DNA from: a phage
Length of the DNA stretch: 64,000 bases
Direction: 5' to 3' (one strand)
NCBI GenBank assembly: GCA_027262695.1
Contig: GCA_027262695.1_4722.1
This document shows, piece after piece, positions 5,700 through 42,397 of this stretch (position 1 is the stretch's first letter; the number at the start of each line of letters is the position of its first letter). The translations under genes were made by a program, and so were the position numbers. Below the pieces are notes generated by a model. The model searched no databases and was not told the origin of the DNA. It saw nothing but the letters and a program-made list of their open reading frames with translations.

Positions 5700-6089
5700 T
5701 TAACGGATTGCGTTTTGGATGATTTCTTTTCCGATCGTAATCAAAGCAGGTATCTGTACTGCGGTTGCGCCTTGATGACGAAACGCGGTCGTTAATGCGG
5801 TATCGATGCTCACAGCACGTCCGTGAAGACGATCGAAATAGACTTGAGTGATAGCAGCGGCATACTCTTTTCGCTGTTTCTTGGTTTGGTTTACCATCGT
5901 CGCACTACTACCGACGATGAAATAAGCGATTAAGAAGAATGCGGCTGACCGTGAGCCGGGTAGAAAGCCTTGGCGTTTAGGAAGCATTTCACAATCACGA
6001 ACAGTAATACTGTTCGTGAGCTTTTCCATGTCGACATGGCATAATTTTGCATAGGTGTGAAGATGATGGGTAAAAGTTGAATTTAACAT
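5700..6089 (-). CDS. hypothetical small protein with one hydrophobic segment
   Basis: 129 aa ORF; AAFFLIAYFIVGSSATMV looks like a transmembrane helix. Confidence 0.4.
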   Translation of the reverse strand: MLNSTFTHHLHTYAKLCHVDMEKLTNSITVRDCEMLPKRQGFLPGSRSAAFFLIAYFIVGSSATMVNQTKKQRKEYAAAITQVYFDRLHGRAVSIDTALTTAFRHQGATAVQIPALITIGKEIIQNAIR

Positions 6090-11879: not shown

Positions 11880-12070
11880 TATCGTTATCTTAGTTTATCT
11901 GTGTATTCGTTAGGTATCTTGATTTATCTTCTTAATGATCTTTTCAAAAGTGTTATCATGGTTATCTTAGGTTATGTCTTAATTGTTTTATCTTGGTATG
12001 TTTAAGTTGTTTTAAGTTATCTGTTTATCTATCTTGTTATCTTGTTTAAGTTGTTAATGGCTTATCTTCA
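11880..12070. repeat. iteron-like cluster: at least 9 copies of TTATCT plus two copies of GTTTAAGTTGTT
   Basis: Direct repeats read from sequence inside a roughly 950-bp ORF-poor AT-rich island (11628-12584). Confidence 0.55.
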
Positions 12071-33988: not shown

Positions 33989-36580
33989 TTACTGTTCGTC
34001 GCGTTCCAACAGGTACTCGGAAGCCGTAACACCGTTTACAGTACGGATGGCTTTCAGACGTGTATCATCGTTCAGAATCACGGTAACAGACTGCAGACCT
34101 TTTACCTTGGTTTCGAAGGTTTTGAATACCTGGTCTAACATACGTGCGATGCTTGGGTTGGTGGCAGCTGATGCGTGGGTATACCCACTCTGATTAAGTT
34201 TCAGAATCTTCGCGTTGGTTGGTACACGAACGATAACATGCGGACGCATAGCGAACACGCTGTGGTTGAACCAGTACGCATCCGGGCTGTCTTCATCGGT
34301 CACGAGGTCTGGATGGGTCTGCATATCTTCAGCTGCAGCATCCGCCAAACGACGTTCGATTTCGTCAGCATCCAGAGAACCATCTTTCTCCAGCTCGGCA
34401 CGATACTCATCCATGATTGCTGCACGACGCTCTTGATTTGCGACCATCTTATCATGAGCCGCATTCAGGTAGTCGTTCATGCTGTAAAGCTCTGCCATGG
34501 AAAGACGGATGTTCCACTGACCACCACCGTCACGATTGCAGTAGAGGCATTTCAACATATTGCCCCAGGTGTGATAGCAACGGGTGAACTCGTCTTCGAT
34601 GAACTTCTGATCCATTTTAAGTTCGTTGATCAGCCAGCTATACAGCTCACCGACATCATCTACGAAGCTTGCAATGGTGGTTTCAGAGAAGTTCTTAGGT
34701 ACAACACGCTTGATCCATTTGTTGATGTCTTTGGTCATGCTGTCGTTCAGGAAATGCCAGATACGCAGAGGGATAACCTCTCTGTGTTGTTGCATGACCT
34801 GACGATAGGCTGACACACCTTCAATATGACCTTTATCAATAGACAGGGCATCCAGGAATTCCTGGATAGCATCAAGCTGTTTATCGGTGTAGGTTCCCAG
34901 GTAGGAATTGACTGTGGTCAGGAACGCCAAAGCATCGTTCTGGTTGACGTCGGTATTGGTCTGCTGGATGATCGCAACCGTCGCTTTGGTTTCAGCGTCT
35001 TCGATGCTGGATGCCGGAACCATGTCAGTGACAGTGAACAGTTTCATCTCACGCTGTTCGCCAACAACAATCGGTTCACGTCTAACCGGTTTGTTCAGGC
35101 TAACACGCACAACTTCTGCTTGCGCGATACGATCCCATTCTGCCATTTCCAGCTCCGCCATACGACGTGCGGTTGGATCTGTTTCAAGTTGAATGTATTC
35201 CATTTCTTCCACCGTAAGTGAGGTAATATCAACAATGGTTTCATGAAGAATTCCATTTTCGTCGATGCGAGCACGACGAGCGAATTGCCTGAAGTCATAC
35301 GCGGTTGGCCAACGGCTATCAGGTGCGTAGTCTTTGGCTTTCAGACGCATTTGCATGAATTCTTCATGGTGAACAACACGACCGTATTGCTTCGCATCTT
35401 CGGTCGCATCAAGAGGGTCAACCGTTTTGGTTACCGTTGCAGGACGTACGCTACGTACCGGCTCAGGTTTTACCTTCACGGTTTCAGGTTGAGTAGGCGC
35501 TTTCTGCTCAGCCTTAACATGCCATTTCGGTTCTTCGTACTGCTCAGCGAATTGCTCAGCTACCGCAAAGATATCGTTGATACCGCCGATATCTCCATCC
35601 GGATGGGTTGAGTAAATACGCGTTTGTGGTGCTTCCCGACGTGTTGCTGCCGGAGCAGGTTTATCGTCAACTGGGTCATCATCACCAACATCGTACAAAC
35701 GGTTGAACGCACACTCCTTCGAATCCATATACGAAGGTGCTTGCTGCTGAACAACCGTTGGTCGAGGTTGTGTGCCGTATCCTGGCATTGTCGGAGCCAT
35801 ACCACGCATAACCGCTGGATTAGGTTGGTACTGCGGCTGAGGATAAGCTCCACCGTACGTGTTATACACAGGTTGTTGAGGTTGACCGTATCCGGCGTTG
35901 ACCATCGCGTTTGCTTGCGGTCCGCGATAGGTCATTCCCAACTGCGTTACCTGCGCTTTTAACGCACGTGTCTTCTGCGCGATTTGATTCAGAGTCCCAC
36001 CTTGATTCAGTTGTGTATACTTATTCGCTGCTTCCGGGTTAATGCGCGTTAATTCCTTTGCACGATAATACTCAGGATATTGATTGGCCTCAAAGAGCCA
36101 CTGTACAAGATGCATAAGTATCGTTGTACGTACCGCGGTGTCGATAATCTGATCGACTGAAGCATTCTGAGGCGCTGGGTTGATGTAAGAGAATACGTTC
36201 CAGCAGCAGTCTTCAACAAGTGACTCCATCGCCTCGTTGTTATTGGCGTAACGTGCCACGAACTGTGTTTGAATATCGTCTTGCTGGGCATGCTCTTTCA
36301 GGATAACAAAGATAGCCTGACGGATTTTGACGATATTTCCTTCGTTGGTGATGAACTGGTAGTTCTGCTGATATGCTGGATTAGGTTGGTATTGCGGTGG
36401 TTGTTGGTAACCGCCCCCGTATTGTGGATAAGCCGGTTGCTGGGGTTGGTACGGAGGTTGTTGATATTGCGGTTGCTGGTACTGTTGTTGACGCACCTGG
36501 TCAGCTGCAAATCGAACCGTGCTTGCGTACGGGTTCTCGCTATAGCCCATTTGTTGGTAAATGTTGTTACCGTTATACAT
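33989..36580 (-). CDS. hypothetical head-module protein with Q/P/Y-rich low-complexity N-terminus
   Basis: 863 aa; N-terminal QQQYQQPQYQQPPYQPQQPAYPQYGGGYQQPPQYQPNPAYQQNYQ. Confidence 0.55.
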   Translation of the reverse strand: MYNGNNIYQQMGYSENPYASTVRFAADQVRQQQYQQPQYQQPPYQPQQPAYPQYGGGYQQPPQYQPNPAYQQNYQFITNEGNIVKIRQAIFVILKEHAQQDDIQTQFVARYANNNEAMESLVEDCCWNVFSYINPAPQNASVDQIIDTAVRTTILMHLVQWLFEANQYPEYYRAKELTRINPEAANKYTQLNQGGTLNQIAQKTRALKAQVTQLGMTYRGPQANAMVNAGYGQPQQPVYNTYGGAYPQPQYQPNPAVMRGMAPTMPGYGTQPRPTVVQQQAPSYMDSKECAFNRLYDVGDDDPVDDKPAPAATRREAPQTRIYSTHPDGDIGGINDIFAVAEQFAEQYEEPKWHVKAEQKAPTQPETVKVKPEPVRSVRPATVTKTVDPLDATEDAKQYGRVVHHEEFMQMRLKAKDYAPDSRWPTAYDFRQFARRARIDENGILHETIVDITSLTVEEMEYIQLETDPTARRMAELEMAEWDRIAQAEVVRVSLNKPVRREPIVVGEQREMKLFTVTDMVPASSIEDAETKATVAIIQQTNTDVNQNDALAFLTTVNSYLGTYTDKQLDAIQEFLDALSIDKGHIEGVSAYRQVMQQHREVIPLRIWHFLNDSMTKDINKWIKRVVPKNFSETTIASFVDDVGELYSWLINELKMDQKFIEDEFTRCYHTWGNMLKCLYCNRDGGGQWNIRLSMAELYSMNDYLNAAHDKMVANQERRAAIMDEYRAELEKDGSLDADEIERRLADAAAEDMQTHPDLVTDEDSPDAYWFNHSVFAMRPHVIVRVPTNAKILKLNQSGYTHASAATNPSIARMLDQVFKTFETKVKGLQSVTVILNDDTRLKAIRTVNGVTASEYLLERDEQ

Positions 36581-36614: not shown

Positions 36615-38414
36615 TCAATCGATTATGTCACGATCGTTAATTTCTACAATTTCTTCATCGAATCGACCGACGTCTTTCTTCAAGCCTGCGTTTGTTGCTG
36701 CAACGTCATTTGCGATTTGTGGGGTAACGATTAACCGACCACGATCGTCAATCGGTGCGTACATACTGAACTTCTGGCGTCCGGTTGGTTCGGAGTGCGG
36801 AAGATTCAGATAGCTCGCGCAGAACGGGATGGAACCGCTCACCAAACGACTCTCGTCAGCCAATGCGGCACCGCCCGCATTTTGACTCTGGAGAACAACA
36901 TGTGTACTTACTTTGAACAGCATGCAGTCACCAGGTGATTGAATCGAGGTTGCCACTTTCTCGCGTTTATCACGATTGCTCTGGATGTTGAGAATCGCTT
37001 CTGTTGCAACTTGATTGCGTAACGCTTTTTGTACATCGCGATTGGTCATCTCTTTCCGGTTGTTCTGTCGTTTACCACGTTCAGTGGTTTTAAGATGGAA
37101 CCCCAGTTTAAAGATGCTCTTACGCACATCCTCCATGACGTATTCCAACACCATCAGTTCCTTACCGAACATCGTCGTGGTGTCGACACGACTCATTTCG
37201 ATAGTGACGTTATCAATCAAATACGCCATGAATTCGTAGAAGTCGTCGCACGGAATATTTTCCTGTTTGAACTTCTTCTGTTGAATTTCGTCAACGTAAA
37301 GATCGAGGCTGTCGATGTGGTGGTTTACATCACGCAACAAACGCGCATCCGCGTTGTTGTTATTAAAGATAATCAAACCGAGTAGCGTACGCCAGTGGTC
37401 TGGCGCATTCGCGAACTCTTCAACCGGATAGTCTTCTGGAAAACGATCGTAATAACGGTCGATGAGATAGAGGAACGCACCGACAAGACCGAGCACAATA
37501 CGTTCCGTGCCGCCACGTCTTACCGCGATTTGAATATCAGGATGTTTATAACGTACCGCGCTAACGCTACGACTCTTACCGCTTTTGCTAATACTAAAGC
37601 CTTTAGGAATAACGCCCATGGTGCGATAGATTACCCATTGGTCGCGCGGAAAATCACGTTCAGCGAGATTCCGTCCGGTTATTGCTTCGACGCCTGCAAA
37701 ACGCCGGAAACATTCACCCACGCCATATTTCGCAAAGAGATAATGGCCCAACGTGGTTACGCTGGTGTGGTTGATGTTGTCCCCGTTCACCTTGCTTTGT
37801 TTGGTAAGGTGATAGATTTGCGACCAGGGCAATGACAAGTAATGTCGATAATCATTACCGGTTGGTGTATCATTGCTCAGGAACTGATACGGCGTACGCT
37901 TAACGGTGATTTTGTCACGCGGAAGCATGATGAACGCCATGTCTTTCGTGTAACTGATTACCGGGTCAGCAAGCACCGCACTGAGAATGAAGTTCGCACC
38001 ACGTAGACGCATCTTGCCACCCTGACCTACCGCAGGCAATAGGAGAGGATGCCGGATGATGCAGTAATCCTTGCCGGGTTCACGACGGTCACCTGCTTCC
38101 ATCGCGCCATACCAGCGGAATTCCAGCATCACCATGAACACATCGGAAGGCGCAAGGTCGAACGTCAGCTTACCGCTATCCTTCCCTTTGGTTTTCTTTC
38201 CTCCGCTTAAGTAGTGAAACTGTTCGCGGGCCATACAACGACGTAGGCCATGATACACCAGATCCTTAGGTAAACTATCTTTGCTGTTCCGCCAAAGACG
38301 ATCGACGTAGGACTCAACATCTTGCATCTTATCGACAACGATGTTGCGTGCTATCTTCTCGTTCATCTTCGGTGCAAGCTCAGCGACAGCTTTGCAGAAT
38401 CTAGGATCCATCAC
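36615..38414 (-). CDS. hypothetical head-module protein
   Basis: 599 aa ORF. Confidence 0.5.
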   Translation of the reverse strand: MMDPRFCKAVAELAPKMNEKIARNIVVDKMQDVESYVDRLWRNSKDSLPKDLVYHGLRRCMAREQFHYLSGGKKTKGKDSGKLTFDLAPSDVFMVMLEFRWYGAMEAGDRREPGKDYCIIRHPLLLPAVGQGGKMRLRGANFILSAVLADPVISYTKDMAFIMLPRDKITVKRTPYQFLSNDTPTGNDYRHYLSLPWSQIYHLTKQSKVNGDNINHTSVTTLGHYLFAKYGVGECFRRFAGVEAITGRNLAERDFPRDQWVIYRTMGVIPKGFSISKSGKSRSVSAVRYKHPDIQIAVRRGGTERIVLGLVGAFLYLIDRYYDRFPEDYPVEEFANAPDHWRTLLGLIIFNNNNADARLLRDVNHHIDSLDLYVDEIQQKKFKQENIPCDDFYEFMAYLIDNVTIEMSRVDTTTMFGKELMVLEYVMEDVRKSIFKLGFHLKTTERGKRQNNRKEMTNRDVQKALRNQVATEAILNIQSNRDKREKVATSIQSPGDCMLFKVSTHVVLQSQNAGGAALADESRLVSGSIPFCASYLNLPHSEPTGRQKFSMYAPIDDRGRLIVTPQIANDVAATNAGLKKDVGRFDEEIVEINDRDIID

Positions 38415-38450: not shown

Positions 38451-39833
38451 TTATTTCTTCGATGACGCCTTCTCAAGAATCTTGAAAAAGGTCATACCTA
38501 TACCGACAACGGCTGCGGTGATGCTTGCTGCAGCTTTCCAGACATCGACGTTACGTTGACGTCGTGCTTCTTCCGCCTCACGTTGTCTTTTTGCCTCTTC
38601 ATCACGTCGGCGTATTTCAGCAGCGAATTCCTCATGCTTACGTTTCGCGTCTTCGTCTCGGCGACGCATTTCAGCGATAAGTTCATCGTGCTTACGTTTC
38701 GCGTCTTCATCGCGACGTTTGAGTTCAGCCAGATGGTCATCTTGCATTTGTCGCCGAAGTTCGTCCTGACGTTTTATTTCGGCTCTATGCTGCTCATCAC
38801 GCAGTTTTGCTTCAGCGCGATGGGTCTCTTGCATCCGTTCGATGACGTCTTTATGTTCATCCGCCATACGTCGCATTTCAGCCATCACCCCTTTAAGGGT
38901 TTCTTCTGATGACTTACGTTCGTAGCTACGCTGGTCGAAATCATTTTTGTAGGCTTCCTTCTGGATGGGATCGCGCCAATGCAATGCCGATTCGCGGGTT
39001 GGAAAAACATTGTATTTCCACATTTCTTTTTCCAAATCTTCTACCGGTACGAAGACGGAATCATTATTCCCGAAGGTAACCAACATCCCTGGAGCACCTG
39101 CCCCGTTCGTTGGTTTTATTTCGAACGCTTTCCCCAAGACGTTAACCCATAAGCTGTACGGATTATGGAAGTCTGGTGGCGTCCAATGGATGGTGAGCTG
39201 TGTTCCGAGAATCCGGAACCCCTCTGGTTTTCCTGTTAAACTTCGCGCACATGTTGCGATATAGGGGTGATCAATCCCTTTCGTAACATGGTCAGCGCTT
39301 TTGTATTCTCCTTTAACTTTTACGATTGCCACGTTAATTTGCGCGACATACACAGGTTGATTAAAATTTAAGGCTGTTAGGTCTATTCGACATATCTCGT
39401 CCAAGGTGTCGTACCAATCTTCCTGGTCGAGCAACCTGGGTTTTCTCTCGACGCACGTAATGCGTCGGATATGGGGTTTTCTTACCGCATAACCGCTTCG
39501 GTTTTTAACGCCCAGTATATCCCGTCGTCTACCGTCGTAGACGAAGTTCTTGAACGCGCCATTCGCATTAGATATGTCATGGCTGTCAACTATTACAGGA
39601 CTACGAAATTTTGAACGTCGTACGATCCTGAATGTGTTACCCTCTTCGACCCTACCTGGAATGTATTGGAACATATTGTCGGATGTAATGACCAATACCG
39701 TATGCCCAGACTCATTAATACAACCCCACCCTAACTCTAAGTCATATAACGGTTCCTGGTATCCGTCGATGCTATACGTGCCTGTGCCATCCCACGGCTC
39801 AAACGGCGTATCGCAAACCGGCATAGAGGACAT
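38451..39833 (-). CDS. hypothetical protein: globular N-domain, E/R/K-rich repeat helix, C-terminal hydrophobic anchor
   Basis: 460 aa; repeats RRDEDAKRKHDELIAEMRRRDEDAKRKHEEFAAEIRRRDEEAKRQ then AAASITAAVVGIGMTFF. Confidence 0.55.
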   Translation of the reverse strand: MSSMPVCDTPFEPWDGTGTYSIDGYQEPLYDLELGWGCINESGHTVLVITSDNMFQYIPGRVEEGNTFRIVRRSKFRSPVIVDSHDISNANGAFKNFVYDGRRRDILGVKNRSGYAVRKPHIRRITCVERKPRLLDQEDWYDTLDEICRIDLTALNFNQPVYVAQINVAIVKVKGEYKSADHVTKGIDHPYIATCARSLTGKPEGFRILGTQLTIHWTPPDFHNPYSLWVNVLGKAFEIKPTNGAGAPGMLVTFGNNDSVFVPVEDLEKEMWKYNVFPTRESALHWRDPIQKEAYKNDFDQRSYERKSSEETLKGVMAEMRRMADEHKDVIERMQETHRAEAKLRDEQHRAEIKRQDELRRQMQDDHLAELKRRDEDAKRKHDELIAEMRRRDEDAKRKHEEFAAEIRRRDEEAKRQREAEEARRQRNVDVWKAAASITAAVVGIGMTFFKILEKASSKK

Positions 39834-40045
39834 TGATTATCCTCCCTCAAACAGACAACATACATGCATAATGCACGTCCCTTTTCTTGTTATCATCACA
39901 ACGACAGTCGACGGTTTCAGCATCATTCTTAGCGCGAGAACGACCTTACGTGTTGTCTATGCCTTTTTTCATTGAAGGCTTCTGTCACCTAGGTAATGTA
40001 AGCGTCAAATTTTTTCTAATCTAACCCAGCATAACAGCATAATAA

Positions 40046-40074
40046 CCTCCCTCAGCCCGTAAGGACCGAGGGAG
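40046..40074. terminator. hairpin CCTCCCTC...GAGGGAGG downstream of putative capsid gene
   Basis: 8-bp outer stem with inner CCGTAAGG. Confidence 0.45.
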
Positions 40075-40174
40075 GTTGACTTATGTATCACGGTGCCGGA
40101 TGAATGTCCGGTGTAATGAAACCATCCGCAACGTTGTTTTCAAGAACTTCATCCAACGAAGCAGCTCCGGTATT

Positions 40175-42397
40175 TCAGTTAGTCTGAACCGGCAGCTTGA
40201 TGTTTTCAGTGTAGACCTTACGCAGGTTCACAACGTTGATCAGACCCAGCAGCGGGCAGTTGTTCACGAAACGGCAGCGCGGCTGAACCATGGTTTCTTT
40301 AGAAACCTGACCGTTACGAGTAACCTGAGCAACGGATACCAGTTCCGGTACGTACAGGAACATACCGAAGGTCAGCGGATCCGGAGAACCCTGGATACCA
40401 CGAGACAGGGTCACGAAGATCTTGTCGCGCAACATGACGTTCGGGTTGTCTACAACCACGAAGTTGAAGCTTACACCCACGGTGCGGAAGTCACCGTCGG
40501 TCTGCAGGAACTGCGGGATGTAGTTGTCGGTTGCTACTACGCAACGCGGTTTCTCATCAGCGTTGGAAGACAGCAGCTGCAGAGCTGGCTGATAACCAGA
40601 CTCGGAGTACATGCGGTACGCCATTTCACGAATCACGTTCATGATCGCAGCGGATACTTCAGCACGACGTTCTGCAGTGGTGGTACCCTGAACGGATTTC
40701 TCCAGGTCCAGATCGATTTCTTCGAACCACGGACGAATCAGGTAACGACCGAAACCTTCGATCTGAATGTCACCGAACTGACGGAAGCGAGAAGTTGCAA
40801 CCGCTTTCAGGGCGTCTTTGTAGCTGAACAGTTTCTCAACCATCAGGTTGTCGAAACGTGCGTTAGCTGCTTGGATCAGAACATCCAGGTCAGCAGCGTT
40901 TTCTTCCCAATCCAGCGGACGAGGAATGGAGAACGGAGCCAGCAGGCCGATTGCGTAACGTTCTTGCTTCATGTTGAAGTCAAGATGTTTACCGCGTTCA
41001 CGACGGTTGCTGTTGTTACGACGGATACGCAGTTCGTAACCCACCAGTTTGAAGCTCAGGTCTTCAGCCAGATCTTTGAATTCCTGGCTCTTACGCGGTT
41101 GTTCGATGTTGTCCTGGTCAACCAGACGATACAGTTCAGCGGTAGCGCCATTAACACGCAGACCCGCTTTCTCTACGTTGGAAGAACCGTAAACTTCGAT
41201 CGCCAGCTGAGCAGCAGATTTCGCATCGATGATGTCCTGCAGCGCTTCAGCTTTCGCACCTTTAACGTCAACGGTGTTCTCATCAACGAAGATGGAGTGG
41301 GTGTCGAACGCCAGGGTCATTTTGCGGAAGTCGCCTTCCAGGGATTTCTGGAAACCGTTGGTGATCAGACCGGATACGTCGAACGGAACGTAAGAGGTTT
41401 TGCTGTGCTTGGTGGATTTAATTTCCACCAGGATTTTGGTCAGCGTGATCTGAGCATCCAGCGCGTCAGTGTTGTCGCTGTAACCGTTAGCCAGAATGCT
41501 ATCGTCTTCAGCGATACCGATCATGTCGATCAGTTTATCAACCGCCAGGTAAGACGTTTTGTAAGTAACGCCTTTGATTTCGATGTCGCGCGGAGCAACG
41601 ATGGTTTTATCAACGAAGTACTGCGCGTTAGCATCGTCAGCACGGTAGATCGGATGCAGATCGGTCACGTCGTTGGACAGAACGTCGTTGTACATGAACG
41701 CATCCAGCAGCGGACGACGTACCCAATCAGCCGGAGTACCATCACCGTTACGACGCAGGTGGTTGAACACCAGCGGACGACGGAAGGAAACGTCATAACC
41801 GATCTGGTTCGGAGCCAGAACGATGGTGTTGTACAGTTCGTTACCCATGCGGCTCAGACGAGACGCCTTCACGTTGAACACAACGGAGTACGGCATCATG
41901 TCACGCAGTTCTTTCTGGTCGTAGGACAGCTGAACCAGTTCTTCAGATTCACAACCGCAGGAATCCGCAGCCATCATGACGAAGTTAGCGCTGTCAACAT
42001 CACGGCCGGACGGCGAGGTGCTGATGTTCATGGAACGTGCTTGTTTAGCATATTCCACCGGGTTGCCATGTGCCAGCATGATCAGCGCTGCAGCGCGAGC
42101 CTGCTGTGCGTTCATGGTGAACAGCTGTTCTTCAATACGTTGCTTCTCTTCCGGAGTTGTGGTTTCGAAGCCCAGCATGGACAGAACCGGTTCTTCAGCT
42201 TTACGGATGTCGCTGCTGAAGCTCTTAACATCCATTTCGTTAACCAGTTTGTCCATGGATTTGAAATCAACCTTAGAAGCAGATTCCATAGACAGGAAGG
42301 TGTTTTCCAGACCTTTGTCTGCTGGTTTGCTACCATTAGCGGTCAGGAACTGGCGAGTGGCCGCGACCTGTTGGCTAAGAAGGGTTTTATCATTCAT
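40175..42397 (-). CDS. putative major capsid protein (large HK97-fold type, by size and codon usage)
   Basis: 740 aa; strongest host-optimal codon bias in window, producing a 774-codon stop-free antisense ORF; AAGGA RBS. Confidence 0.45.
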   Translation of the reverse strand: MNDKTLLSQQVAATRQFLTANGSKPADKGLENTFLSMESASKVDFKSMDKLVNEMDVKSFSSDIRKAEEPVLSMLGFETTTPEEKQRIEEQLFTMNAQQARAAALIMLAHGNPVEYAKQARSMNISTSPSGRDVDSANFVMMAADSCGCESEELVQLSYDQKELRDMMPYSVVFNVKASRLSRMGNELYNTIVLAPNQIGYDVSFRRPLVFNHLRRNGDGTPADWVRRPLLDAFMYNDVLSNDVTDLHPIYRADDANAQYFVDKTIVAPRDIEIKGVTYKTSYLAVDKLIDMIGIAEDDSILANGYSDNTDALDAQITLTKILVEIKSTKHSKTSYVPFDVSGLITNGFQKSLEGDFRKMTLAFDTHSIFVDENTVDVKGAKAEALQDIIDAKSAAQLAIEVYGSSNVEKAGLRVNGATAELYRLVDQDNIEQPRKSQEFKDLAEDLSFKLVGYELRIRRNNSNRRERGKHLDFNMKQERYAIGLLAPFSIPRPLDWEENAADLDVLIQAANARFDNLMVEKLFSYKDALKAVATSRFRQFGDIQIEGFGRYLIRPWFEEIDLDLEKSVQGTTTAERRAEVSAAIMNVIREMAYRMYSESGYQPALQLLSSNADEKPRCVVATDNYIPQFLQTDGDFRTVGVSFNFVVVDNPNVMLRDKIFVTLSRGIQGSPDPLTFGMFLYVPELVSVAQVTRNGQVSKETMVQPRCRFVNNCPLLGLINVVNLRKVYTENIKLPVQTN

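Follow-up and report, generated by a model that had tools for sequence, protein, structure and literature searches.

A core-family protein of Goslar-like jumbo phages with a charged helical stalk and a conserved C-terminal hydrophobic segment: a candidate link between membrane and phage nucleus

Introduction

Nucleus-forming jumbo phages transfer their genome from a lipid vesicle to a protein shell. In the 64,000-nucleotide stretch of phage DNA analysed here (the window; GenBank assembly GCA_027262695.1, contig GCA_027262695.1_4722.1), which is a close relative of the E. coli jumbo phage Goslar (~92% DNA identity), one gene raises the question of what a protein with a long, highly charged repeat helix and a hydrophobic C-terminus does beside the capsid gene. 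A preliminary description, made from the DNA letters, had offered two answers, a ruler or scaffold and a membrane-tethered factor.

Results

Identity and family membership

The 460-residue product of the open reading frame (Table 1) is 89% identical to Goslar gp040 (YP_009820725.1). The cg35 row of a published core-genome PSI-BLAST table equates gp040 with phiKZ gp122, and the family also contains PhiPA3 gene 138 (YP_009217217.1), 201phi2-1 gp202 and RAY gp001 (Prichard et al. 2023; Enustun et al. 2023; Gerovac et al. 2025). Residues 14-284 of the head match the orthologs of Eowyn, RSL2, RP12, LucasX and PCH45 with 98% probability (E 2e-13, hhalign) and this group in turn matches the phiKZ-like group (85%, E 6e-6, hhalign); compared directly by profile-profile alignment, the Goslar and phiKZ groups match weakly (7.8%). 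Foldseek against BFVD gave 30 matches at E <1e-3 (1e-10 to 7e-4); the named ones are without exception uncharacterized and come from jumbo phages or uncultured myoviruses, and those from RP12, 201phi2-1 and Eowyn have the lengths of the positional orthologs in these phages. The gene order DnaB, gp42, capsid protein, the gene studied here, non-virion RNA polymerase (nvRNAP), gp38 is conserved in Goslar, two metagenomic relatives, phiKZ, Eowyn, RSL2, PCH45, 201phi2-1, RP12, SNUABM_54, FBKp24, LucasX, Haymo, PDCC-1, BONAISHI and PhiPA3. Given this slot between the capsid and nvRNAP beta genes, on the same strand, and the homology of the head, the gene is, as judged from sequence and position, the Goslar-group member of the Chimalliviridae core family cg35.

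General searches return little with this protein. Pfam gave no match, and the sole match in PHROGs was a weak one to a family with no assigned function (phrog_7727, E 3.7e-5). Searching phage records with tblastn recovered Goslar alone, even at E = 10 with the head, and with the head as query a full HMMER scan across 1.84 billion representatives yielded just two distant relatives. Two alignment-seeded homology searches were dominated by word matches to the charged helix and added just three proteins. In the literature searched, the cg35 family has neither an assigned function nor a described architecture, and we found nothing relevant on Goslar gp40 or on a tail-anchored or transmembrane protein in the context of chimalliviruses or the phage nucleus; the "gp122" and "gp202" of several papers are unrelated genes of other phages.

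Table 1. Features of the gene and its surroundings, in window coordinates
Feature	Position	Strand	Basis or remark
CDS, 460 aa	38451..39833	-	ortholog of Goslar gp040, phiKZ gp122, PhiPA3 gene 138; Chimalliviridae core gene cg35
Shine-Dalgarno-like GAGGGAGG, ATG 7 nt downstream	39841..39848	-	read from sequence
N-terminal beta-rich head, aa 1-288, family-defining part	38970..39833	-	AlphaFold2 secondary structure (low confidence), hhalign, pN/pS
Charged alpha-helical stalk, aa 289-431	38541..38969	-	AlphaFold2 single helix, composition, salt-bridge counts
Six 18-residue (54-nt) units in a single register	38559..38882	-	repeat analysis
Two youngest 54-nt units	38613-38720	-	repeat analysis
27-nt repeat, copy 1	38637..38663	+	pattern search
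27-nt repeat, copy 2	38691..38717	+	pattern search
Indel junction between aa 353 and 354; Goslar has one extra 54-nt (18-aa) unit	38774..38775	-	Goslar alignment
Anchor, aa 432-450: W-K, then 17-residue uncharged AAASITAAVVGIGMTFF	38484..38540	-	hydropathy, conservation against Goslar
Basic amphipathic tail KILEKASSKK, aa 451-460	38454..38483	-	translation
nvRNAP beta subunit (phiKZ gp123-like), downstream gene, 37 nt past the stop	36615..38414	-	homology; nvRNAP in Goslar Table S4
Perfect 15-bp hairpin, UUAC loop, ~100 nt past the capsid gene stop	40044..40077	-	folding

A charged helix on a 54-nt repeat

The preliminary description had seen a globular domain carried on a long charged single helix that ends in a hydrophobic anchor and a basic tail, and this plan holds. 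AlphaFold2 predicts one continuous helix from residue 289 to 454 (pLDDT 83-90 over 320-400). Relatives that are 31-32% identical retain the architecture of head, stalk and anchor, as do positional orthologs throughout the family. The head itself is poorly modelled (pLDDT 60 in the full-protein run, 51 for the head alone), so that no fold can be assigned to it and no binding function read from it, and its Foldseek matches in the PDB (best E 0.24: NusG and small beta-barrels) were discarded as noise. Its pN/pS against Goslar is 0.095.

The stalk, some 140 residues, would measure about 21 nm if helical throughout. Residues 301-431 consist to 56.5% of D, E, K and R with a net charge of 0, and hold 41 opposite-charge pairs at i/i+3 and 37 at i/i+4, about twice the 20.6 +/- 3.5 expected from 2000 shuffles. 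Two marks of an ER/K single alpha-helix (SAH) are thus present: a long predicted helix in which about half or more of the residues are charged, and more opposite-charge pairs at i/i+3 and i/i+4 than chance would give. A hydrophobic patch, [LF][IA]AE[MI], recurs every 18 residues, and spectral power shows weak periodicities of 3.5 and 3.67 in the stalk (p 0.04 and 0.02), so that it may instead form a coiled coil; we infer that it is probably a single helix.

The C-terminal third reads ...LKRRDEDAKRKHDELIAEM RRRDEDAKRKHEEFAAEI RRRDEEAKRQREAEEARRQRNVDVWK AAASITAAVVGIGMTFF KILEKASSKK, and its repetition is visible in the DNA. The 64-kb window holds exactly two matches to the pattern CTTACGTTTCGCGTCTTCRTCKCGRCG, and 100 dinucleotide-preserving shuffles gave none; the two 27-nt copies agree at 24 of 27 bases. 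Tandem Repeats Finder places an array with a period of 54 nt at 38589-38745 (2.1-2.3 copies, 77-80% matches), the top-scoring tandem array of the whole window. The near-identical direct repeats described at first therefore exist as a 27-nt core in two copies, though spaced by 54 rather than about 70 nt, and the full units are less alike, the best two having 74% DNA and 72% protein identity. Older units, in the same 18-residue register, fall to 35-63%.

Stalk length varies while the capsid protein does not

Close relatives carry alleles of 460, 478, 489 and 507 residues, separated by stalk indels of 18, 11 and 18 residues. The spread is 47 residues (~7 nm); in the same relatives the capsid protein stays at 740 residues (98.1-99.5% identical), and the polymerase subunit is 99-99.8% identical. 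The extra unit of Goslar is bordered by direct repeats, GAACAACAYMAAGCCGAA. The recent expansion suspected earlier is thus partly borne out: length changes are ongoing, further upstream in the stalk, but the most similar pair of units is common to all Goslar-like relatives and only 74% identical, so that this particular duplication must be somewhat older. Stalks of the Goslar group exceed those of all measurable relatives by a wide margin, with 148-195 proline-free residues against ~45-90.

A conserved C-terminal segment

The uncharged segment spans residues 434-450 of 460, and the protein has no other hydrophobic segment and no signal peptide, the top hydropathy windows all lying at residues 429-438. 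Tail anchors are expected to lie like this, as the one hydrophobic segment of a protein and no more than about 30 residues from its end. The anchor is the most constrained part of the protein: together with the tail it differs from Goslar by 9 synonymous and 0 non-synonymous changes. The segment itself is real, then, but as a transmembrane helix it is just borderline, with a 19-residue Kyte-Doolittle maximum of 1.76, the 4th highest among the 53 ORFs of the window. Three others without further features of membrane proteins reach this value, for which reason we rejected hydropathy as sole discriminator. A simple Hessa sum gives +2.8 kcal/mol over 19 residues, and four lysines sit in the tail, which a spanning segment would need to carry across the bilayer. 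Since repeat number differs among relatives and the transmembrane prediction, though borderline, is not negative, we do not find the combination of constant repeats and a missing transmembrane helix that would speak against the preliminary description.

Every family member has a hydrophobic or amphipathic C-terminal helix after the charged one, usually K, 13-17 uncharged residues and K. In phiKZ, PhiPA3, 201phi2-1, PDCC-1, FBKp24 and Haymo it is amphipathic and not transmembrane-like (Hessa sums 5.9-9.9), so that the conserved property may be docking to protein rather than to lipid. In the protein studied here the anchor would probably sit in lipid.

Transcription and published data on orthologs

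The gene and the polymerase beta gene downstream of it probably form one transcription unit. On the capsid side lies a strong hairpin (-43.1 kcal/mol over 81 nt, z = -6.7), at whose position terminators are annotated in the records of FBKp24 and LucasX; it is likely a terminator or stability element that sets the late capsid transcript apart from the gene. A scan for sigma-70 promoters and simple terminators was uninformative for this phage.

Published data on orthologs agree with such a separation. Reads for phiKZ gp122 with a control antisense oligonucleotide (ASO) run 3405, 4255, 2580, 2200 and 945 between 5 and 30 min, and under ChmA knockdown they continue to rise, as do those of the polymerase genes and opposite to those of the capsid gene; gp122 is an early transcript that co-varies with the RNA polymerase gene (gp123) and not with the late capsid gene. 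Mass spectrometry of Goslar virions lists gp037, 038, 039, 041 and 042 and detects even trace polymerases, but gp040 is absent; in the record of 201phi2-1, gp200 is marked as a virion protein and gp202 is not. Both gp122 ASOs mildly reduced plaques, with "strong effects on phage transcription" at 30 min, and after selection zero transposon insertions were found in PHIKZ119-124. The phiKZ polymerase gene starts 10 nt downstream of gp122, however, so both phenotypes could be polar. The pulldown and proximity data come from PhiPA3 only: here the ortholog was pulled down with the nuclear-shell proteins ChmA and ChmB and labelled by ChmA-miniTurbo, though it is not among the 25 highest entries for ChmA labelling.

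Discussion

Comparison with known systems

The closest counterparts are the other cg35 proteins, which share the slot, the head domain (by profile and fold) and a charged helix followed by a hydrophobic C-terminus; within the family the Goslar group stands out by its longer stalk and by an anchor more transmembrane-like than that of the Pseudomonas phages. ER/K single alpha-helix domains, found for instance in myosin VI, myosin X and caldesmon, act as rigid spacers. The stalk resembles them in being more than 50% charged, in its dense i/i+3 and i/i+4 pairs of E/D with K/R and in its long unbroken predicted helix, and differs in being rich in arginine and aspartate rather than E and K, in its 18-residue repeat with a hydrophobic patch and in the hydrophobic anchor at its end. 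Rod-like tethers with a tail anchor include the golgins giantin and golgin-84 and the KASH/nesprin proteins, and ElaB and YqjD are tail-anchored proteins of bacteria. Shared with these are the one C-terminal hydrophobic segment at most 30 residues from the end, the lack of a signal peptide and the long helical rod whose N-terminal end would bind. There is no homology, however; compared with classic tail anchors the segment is short and weakly hydrophobic, many lysines stand in the tail, the rod is more likely a single helix than a coiled coil, and insertion is putative. Like ChmB (gp2), ChmC and PicA/Imp1, the family is early, non-virion, conserved and linked to ChmA by labelling or pulldown, but it has no similarity to them in Pfam, PHROG or homology searches, and their published descriptions contain no plan of stalk plus anchor.

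What the protein may do

The idea of a helix that measures or scaffolds the capsid, raised by the preliminary description, does not survive the comparison and is highly improbable. Just the adjacency to the capsid gene and the long helix speak for it; against it stand the absence from Goslar virions and the unmarked gp202 of 201phi2-1, the early expression, the hairpin before the gene and a stalk that varies by 47 residues beside a capsid protein of constant length and at least 98% identity, so that neither the virion or head co-expression nor the coupling of lengths to be looked for in a scaffold or ruler is seen. T4 gp40 and scaffold or tape-measure rulers share with the protein only the notions of a membrane protein near head genes and of a long helix, and are set apart from it by early expression, absence from virions and a stalk length uncoupled from the capsid protein. 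A membrane tether or initiator of procapsid assembly at the inner membrane, working with the portal much as T4 gp40 does, is very unlikely too, even though chimallivirus capsids assemble on the inner membrane, the gene adjoins the capsid gene and the ChmB pulldowns containing the PhiPA3 ortholog also hold capsid and portal proteins. The phiKZ ortholog falls as capsid transcripts climb, the hairpin stands between the two genes, knockdown alters transcription, which is not expected of a pure assembly factor, and Pfam, PHROGs and Foldseek against the PDB reveal no sequence or fold similarity to head-assembly proteins.

Another reading is an accessory factor of the non-virion RNA polymerase, which would help the beta subunit encoded next to it to assemble, to be retained or to reach the nucleus and would use its hydrophobic tail for transient docking only. 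The gene lies directly 5' of the polymerase subunit gene in all phages examined, the gp122 profile parallels that of gp123, and the gp122 knockdown groups with those of polymerase subunits, sigma factor, PicA and ChmA in its strong effects at 30 min. Adjacency is weak evidence, however, where core genes of the family occupy conserved blocks anyway; the authors' published cluster of ChmA, polymerase and PicA leaves gp122 out, the knockdown effect may be polarity on gp123, and a pulldown with the polymerase subunit gp62 fused to GFP was reported to recover the five polymerase subunits, with no mention of this protein. We regard such a factor as unlikely. A better candidate, though still somewhat doubtful, is a stalk integrated in the shell, whose C-terminal helix would plug into the ChmA lattice or ChmB instead of lipid and whose head, reaching 20-30 nm into cytoplasm or lumen, would capture cargo, ribosomes, mRNA or capsids in the manner of nuclear-pore filaments. 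Co-purification with ChmA and ChmB and ChmA-miniTurbo labelling in PhiPA3 would fit, as would the amphipathic C-termini of the Pseudomonas phages, the borderline transmembrane score with its lysine-rich tail, and early expression like that of other shell-associated proteins. In Goslar, Eowyn, RSL2, RP12, LucasX, BONAISHI and SNUABM_54, however, the segment is a stretch of 13-17 residues without charged or strongly polar ones, with many small residues and with lysines on either side, as is typical of lipid-embedded helices, and the published shell structures and interaction papers do not put the protein in the lattice.

The other suggestion of the preliminary description, a membrane-tethered factor, is plausible, and the protein is a good candidate for a link between membrane and phage "nucleus". 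Tentatively, and granting it somewhat less than an even chance, we propose an early, non-virion, anchored spacer-tether between membrane and chimallin shell that is needed for the nucleus-based transcription switch. It consists of three parts, a fast-evolving head predicted to be beta-rich, a presumably rigid ER/K-type stalk and a strongly conserved, lysine-flanked C-terminal hydrophobic helix. The last would attach the protein to a surface post-translationally; this surface would be a lipid bilayer, entered by a tail-anchor-like insertion that may be spanning or monotopic. The stalk would place the head some 20-30 nm off the membrane, where it would touch the chimallin shell (ChmA/ChmB), and the tether would be required for the change to the nucleus-based transcription programme. 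Lipid insertion and the tether role are what the composition of the segment and the data on orthologs suggest to us. Whole 18-residue units would be gained or lost when replication slips or recombination is unequal at the 54-nt repeats, so that stalk length would drift by 18 or 11 residues with the helical phase kept.

Implications for the phage nucleus

In Goslar some factor physically joins the lipid-bound early-infection (EPI) vesicle to the shell. It is conceivable, though we think it improbable, that the family is this missing link between the vesicle and the chimallin shell as it forms. The protein would be made early, from transcripts of the vesicle; its anchor would enter the vesicle membrane from the cytoplasm, and its head, ~20-30 nm away on the rigid helix, would recruit or hold ChmA/ChmB. 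If true, this would account for the nucleus assembling beside the vesicle, for the vesicle staying attached and co-rotating, and for the handover of the genome, and the polymorphism of stalk length would define the gap between membrane and shell. Reviews list the attachment of the compartments and the mechanism of transfer as open questions.

Most core genes of the family Chimalliviridae have no function; cg35 is core, early and apparently essential, with a PhiPA3 ortholog close to the shell, and its sequence points to a concrete physical role, that of an anchored spacer of defined length. It also offers a clean natural case of an ER/K-type helix whose length may evolve through whole-unit, phase-preserving indels driven by DNA repeats.

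A conserved protein with head, stalk and C-terminal helix

At the DNA level the window and the nucleus-forming jumbo phage Escherichia phage vB_EcoM_Goslar are about 92% identical, and the open reading frame (ORF) under study has Goslar gp040 as its ortholog (YP_009820725.1, 'hypothetical protein'; 89% identical over aligned positions). The features that the preliminary description had read from the sequence, a charged repeat helix, a hydrophobic end and a basic tail, are all present in its product, in which a head (residues 1–288) is followed by a stalk and by the segment AAASITAAVVGIGMTFF, with lysines on both sides and then KILEKASSKK.

Features in the window and in related phages
Feature	Position	Strand	Remarks
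ORF under study	38451-39833	-	460 aa
27-nt repeat, copy 1	38637-38663		pattern search of the window
27-nt repeat, copy 2	38691-38717		pattern search of the window
Major capsid gene, phiKZ-type	40175-42397		PF25620, E 4.5e-217
Non-virion RNA polymerase beta subunit gene	36615-38414		flanks the studied ORF on the side opposite the capsid gene
Perfect 15-bp hairpin, UUAC loop	40044-40077	-	about 100 nt past the capsid gene stop
Ortholog of Goslar gp038	33989-36580	-	863 aa
Small ORF	5700-6089	-	129 aa
Second tandem repeat	11962-12014		24-nt period, 2.1 copies, AT-rich
Gene of homolog P0009	L020:4071-5540		relative's DNA
Extra small ORF, phiKZ	L006:3500-3952		gp121
Extra small ORF, 201phi2-1	L010:970-1488		gp201
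Extra small ORF, PhiPA3	L018:1999-2532		gene 137

At the sequence level the family is narrow. Besides fragments, homology searches return Goslar-like proteins with lengths of 460, 478, 489 and 507 aa, and a full HMMER scan with the head adds just two relatives at 31–32% identity (P0015, 413 aa; P0016, 406 aa), whose genes lie in the same order as in the window. The slot between capsid and polymerase genes is occupied in all chimalliviruses examined, by proteins of 311–401 aa. In profile comparisons the Eowyn/RSL2/RP12/LucasX/PCH45 group is connected both to the Goslar group (98% probability with E 2e-13, over residues 14–284) and to the phiKZ-like group (85%, E 6e-6). Foldseek gave 30 matches with E < 1e-3 between our model and predicted viral structures; those with names are all uncharacterized jumbo-phage or uncultured-myovirus proteins, and include RP12, 201phi2-1 and Eowyn entries equal in length to the respective positional orthologs. 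Goslar gp040, phiKZ gp122 and RAY gp001 have been grouped as core gene cg35, 'hypothetical' (Prichard et al., bioRxiv 10.1101/2023.02.24.529968, Supplementary Table 3), and the PhiPA3 record annotates gene 138 (YP_009217217.1) as 'similar to gp122 in phiKZ'. All members follow a common plan of head, charged helix and, at the C-terminus, a hydrophobic or amphipathic helix; this end commonly reads W/x-K, then 13–17 uncharged residues and K, then a short basic tail.

The head, modelled by AlphaFold2 at pLDDT 50–60, is 91% identical to that of Goslar, compared to 98.4% for the capsid protein and 99% for the polymerase subunit; in distant relatives the corresponding figures are 32–36% against 67–71%. 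The gene thus evolves much faster than those adjoining it, an uncommon trait in a core gene and a hint that it co-evolves with some variable partner. Proteins 99–100% identical to the studied one (P0002, P0004, P0012 and P0013) are found on contigs bearing the labels Salmonella enterica and E. coli O157, some of 244 kb and with one variant on 29 contigs, and thus a Goslar-like virulent jumbo phage is carried along in assemblies of bacterial isolates. Goslar is named 27 times in a preprint on 'persistent virulent phages'.

A charged stalk of variable length

The gene holds the top-ranking tandem repeat of the 64-kb window, an array in the stalk DNA with a 54-nt period (2.1–2.3 copies, 77–80% matches by Tandem Repeats Finder); one other tandem repeat was found. 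The preliminary description was right that a 27-nt pattern is present in two copies, but placed them within about 70 bp where the measured spacing is 54 nt. The pattern occurs exactly twice in the whole window, with 24 of 27 bases shared, and in none of 100 shuffles of the sequence. The protein contains six 18-residue units in a single register (residues 318–425), of which the two youngest (372–389 and 390–407) have 72% protein identity and 74% DNA identity; the older ones decay to background similarity.

AlphaFold2 predicts an unbroken helix over residues 289–454, with pLDDT 83–90 across 320–400. Single alpha-helices of the ER/K type combine many charged residues with dense opposite-charge pairs at i/i+3 and i/i+4. 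Residues 301–431 have net charge 0, 56% D/E/K/R, and 41 i/i+3 and 37 i/i+4 pairs compared to 20.6 ± 3.5 in shuffles, and on this composition the stalk appears to bear the ER/K signature. A coiled coil is still conceivable, as a hydrophobic patch returns at intervals of 18 residues and the periods of 3.5–3.67 show weak power. Many orthologs (RSL2, RP12, LucasX, PCH45, Haymo and SNUABM_54) carry a conserved motif, K-x-[IVL]-P or similar, exactly at the junction of charged stalk and hydrophobic segment, suggestive of a kink or helix cap; in the Goslar group the proline is absent and one continuous helix is predicted.

Repeat copy number, proposed earlier as a point to compare across relatives, does vary: the Goslar-like proteins of 460 to 507 aa differ by stalk indels of 18, 11 and 18 residues. 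These correspond to five, three and five helical turns, holding phase to about 20 degrees, though with three events this arithmetic of ours is suggestive at best. In Goslar, the stalk unit missing from the window is flanked by 18-nt direct repeats, GAACAACAYMAAGCCGAA, as expected under slippage or unequal recombination. Among the same stalk-variable phages the capsid protein is constant at 740 aa (98.1–99.5% identical) and the polymerase subunit is 99–99.8% identical. Homolog P0009 pairs a head 99.7% identical to that of the window with a stalk 29 residues longer, resembling that of homolog P0011, and because of this pairing its lineage looks to have undergone a recent length change or within-gene recombination. 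Outside the Goslar group, relatives with a measurable stalk have shorter ones (about 45–90 residues), so that stalk length is only loosely fixed family-wide.

The C-terminal segment

AAASITAAVVGIGMTFF is the sole strongly hydrophobic stretch of the protein, and a borderline candidate for a membrane-spanning helix: its Kyte-Doolittle 19-residue maximum of 1.76 and Hessa sum of +2.8 kcal/mol are simple sums rather than trained predictions, and three other ORFs in the window reach similar hydropathy with no further membrane-protein features. What distinguishes it is its extreme C-terminal position behind about 140 charged helical residues, owing to which it could not be buried in the head. Compared to Goslar, the segment and tail have 0 non-synonymous and 9 synonymous changes, the strongest constraint within the gene (pN/pS is 0.095 for the head and 0.18–0.26 for the stalk). 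Similar or stronger segments are found in P0015, P0016, Eowyn, RP12, BONAISHI and SNUABM_54, while phiKZ, PhiPA3, 201phi2-1, PDCC-1, FBKp24 and Haymo have amphipathic C-terminal helices instead. Elsewhere in the window, the 129-aa ORF has the longest uncharged stretch (19 residues, SAAFFLIAYFIVGSSATMV) and outranks most ORFs as a candidate true membrane protein.

Transcription and expression

The gene probably shares a transcription unit with the polymerase gene rather than the capsid gene, since a hairpin follows the capsid gene and the distance from the ORF to the polymerase gene is just 37 nt. The hairpin (-43.1 kcal/mol over an 81-nt stretch, z = -6.7) was not picked up by a simple terminator scan of the window; phages FBKp24 and LucasX have annotated terminators at the equivalent position, and it is likely a terminator or stabiliser of the highly abundant late capsid mRNA. 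Where the window has a 341-nt non-coding gap, phiKZ, 201phi2-1 and PhiPA3 have an extra small ORF overlapping the 5′ end of the ortholog by about 30–45 nt. The N-terminus of the 863-aa ORF, by position the ortholog of phiKZ gp124, is strikingly rich in Q, P and Y and of low complexity, QQQYQQPQYQQPPYQPQQPAYPQYGGGYQQPPQYQPNPAYQQNYQ, with another such patch near residues 220–290. Goslar virions contain gp038 in low copy number (about 25; bioRxiv 10.64898/2026.04.21.720040, Table S4), and knockdown of phiKZ gp124, like that of gp122, strongly affected transcription.

Expression and phenotype data come from orthologs of low sequence identity to the studied protein. PHIKZ122 is an early gene in phiKZ, since its reads under control ASO (3405, 4255, 2580, 2200 and 945 at 5, 10, 15, 20 and 30 min) parallel those of PHIKZ123 and PHIKZ074, opposite to the capsid gene, whose reads climb from 21025 to 121458 and show no induction in the absence of ChmA, the shell protein of the phage nucleus; under ChmA knockdown PHIKZ122 rises to 5927 reads (Gerovac et al., Nature 2025, PMC12571901, Source Data Fig. 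3b). Both ASOs against PHIKZ122 lower plaque numbers mildly, and its depletion has 'strong effects on phage transcription' at 30 min. Transposon sequencing after selection gave 0 insertions in PHIKZ119–124 compared to 16 in PHIKZ125 (PMC12676376), though this and the PHIKZ122 knockdown may reflect polarity on the adjoining polymerase gene.

Possible function

The studied protein is thus a core protein expressed early, absent from virions and apparently essential, and its PhiPA3 ortholog (gene 138) co-purifies with ChmA and the shell-associated protein ChmB in that single phage (Enustun et al.). The preliminary description had offered a ruler or scaffold, or a membrane-tethered factor. A ruler or scaffold for the capsid is barely credible, being contradicted by the early expression of the ortholog, by a stalk length uncoupled from the capsid protein, and by absence from virions: the mass spectrometry suggested as a check has been published for Goslar, where gp037, 038, 039, 041 and 042 are present and gp040 is absent (bioRxiv 10.64898/2026.04.21.720040, Table S4), and the 201phi2-1 record marks gp200 as a virion protein but not gp202.

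We tentatively propose that the C-terminal segment would anchor the protein in lipid, with the head kept at a distance. This is favoured because the segment in most of the family resembles a lipid-embedded helix between lysines, because membrane is where a hydrophobic helix left exposed in the cytoplasm would partition by default, and because Goslar has a known membrane-to-shell link: its EPI vesicle, a lipid-bound vesicle of early infection, is associated with >95% of ChmA shells, rotates with the nucleus and is 'attached' by an unknown factor. Alternatively the helix might dock into the chimallin lattice or ChmB, the main rival to lipid anchoring, though on balance unlikely. An accessory role for the polymerase is improbable, and a procapsid membrane tether highly so.

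Both modules, a single helix of ER/K type and a C-terminus resembling a tail anchor, belong to known kinds, and the closest functional analogues are rod-like tail-anchored tethers such as golgins or KASH proteins, which have no homology to the studied protein. With this protein, the open question of how EPI vesicle and phage nucleus are joined and coupled becomes accessible to specific experiments. The cg35 family is already catalogued yet uncharacterised, and among the papers searched none was found on its architecture, stalk-length polymorphism or function.
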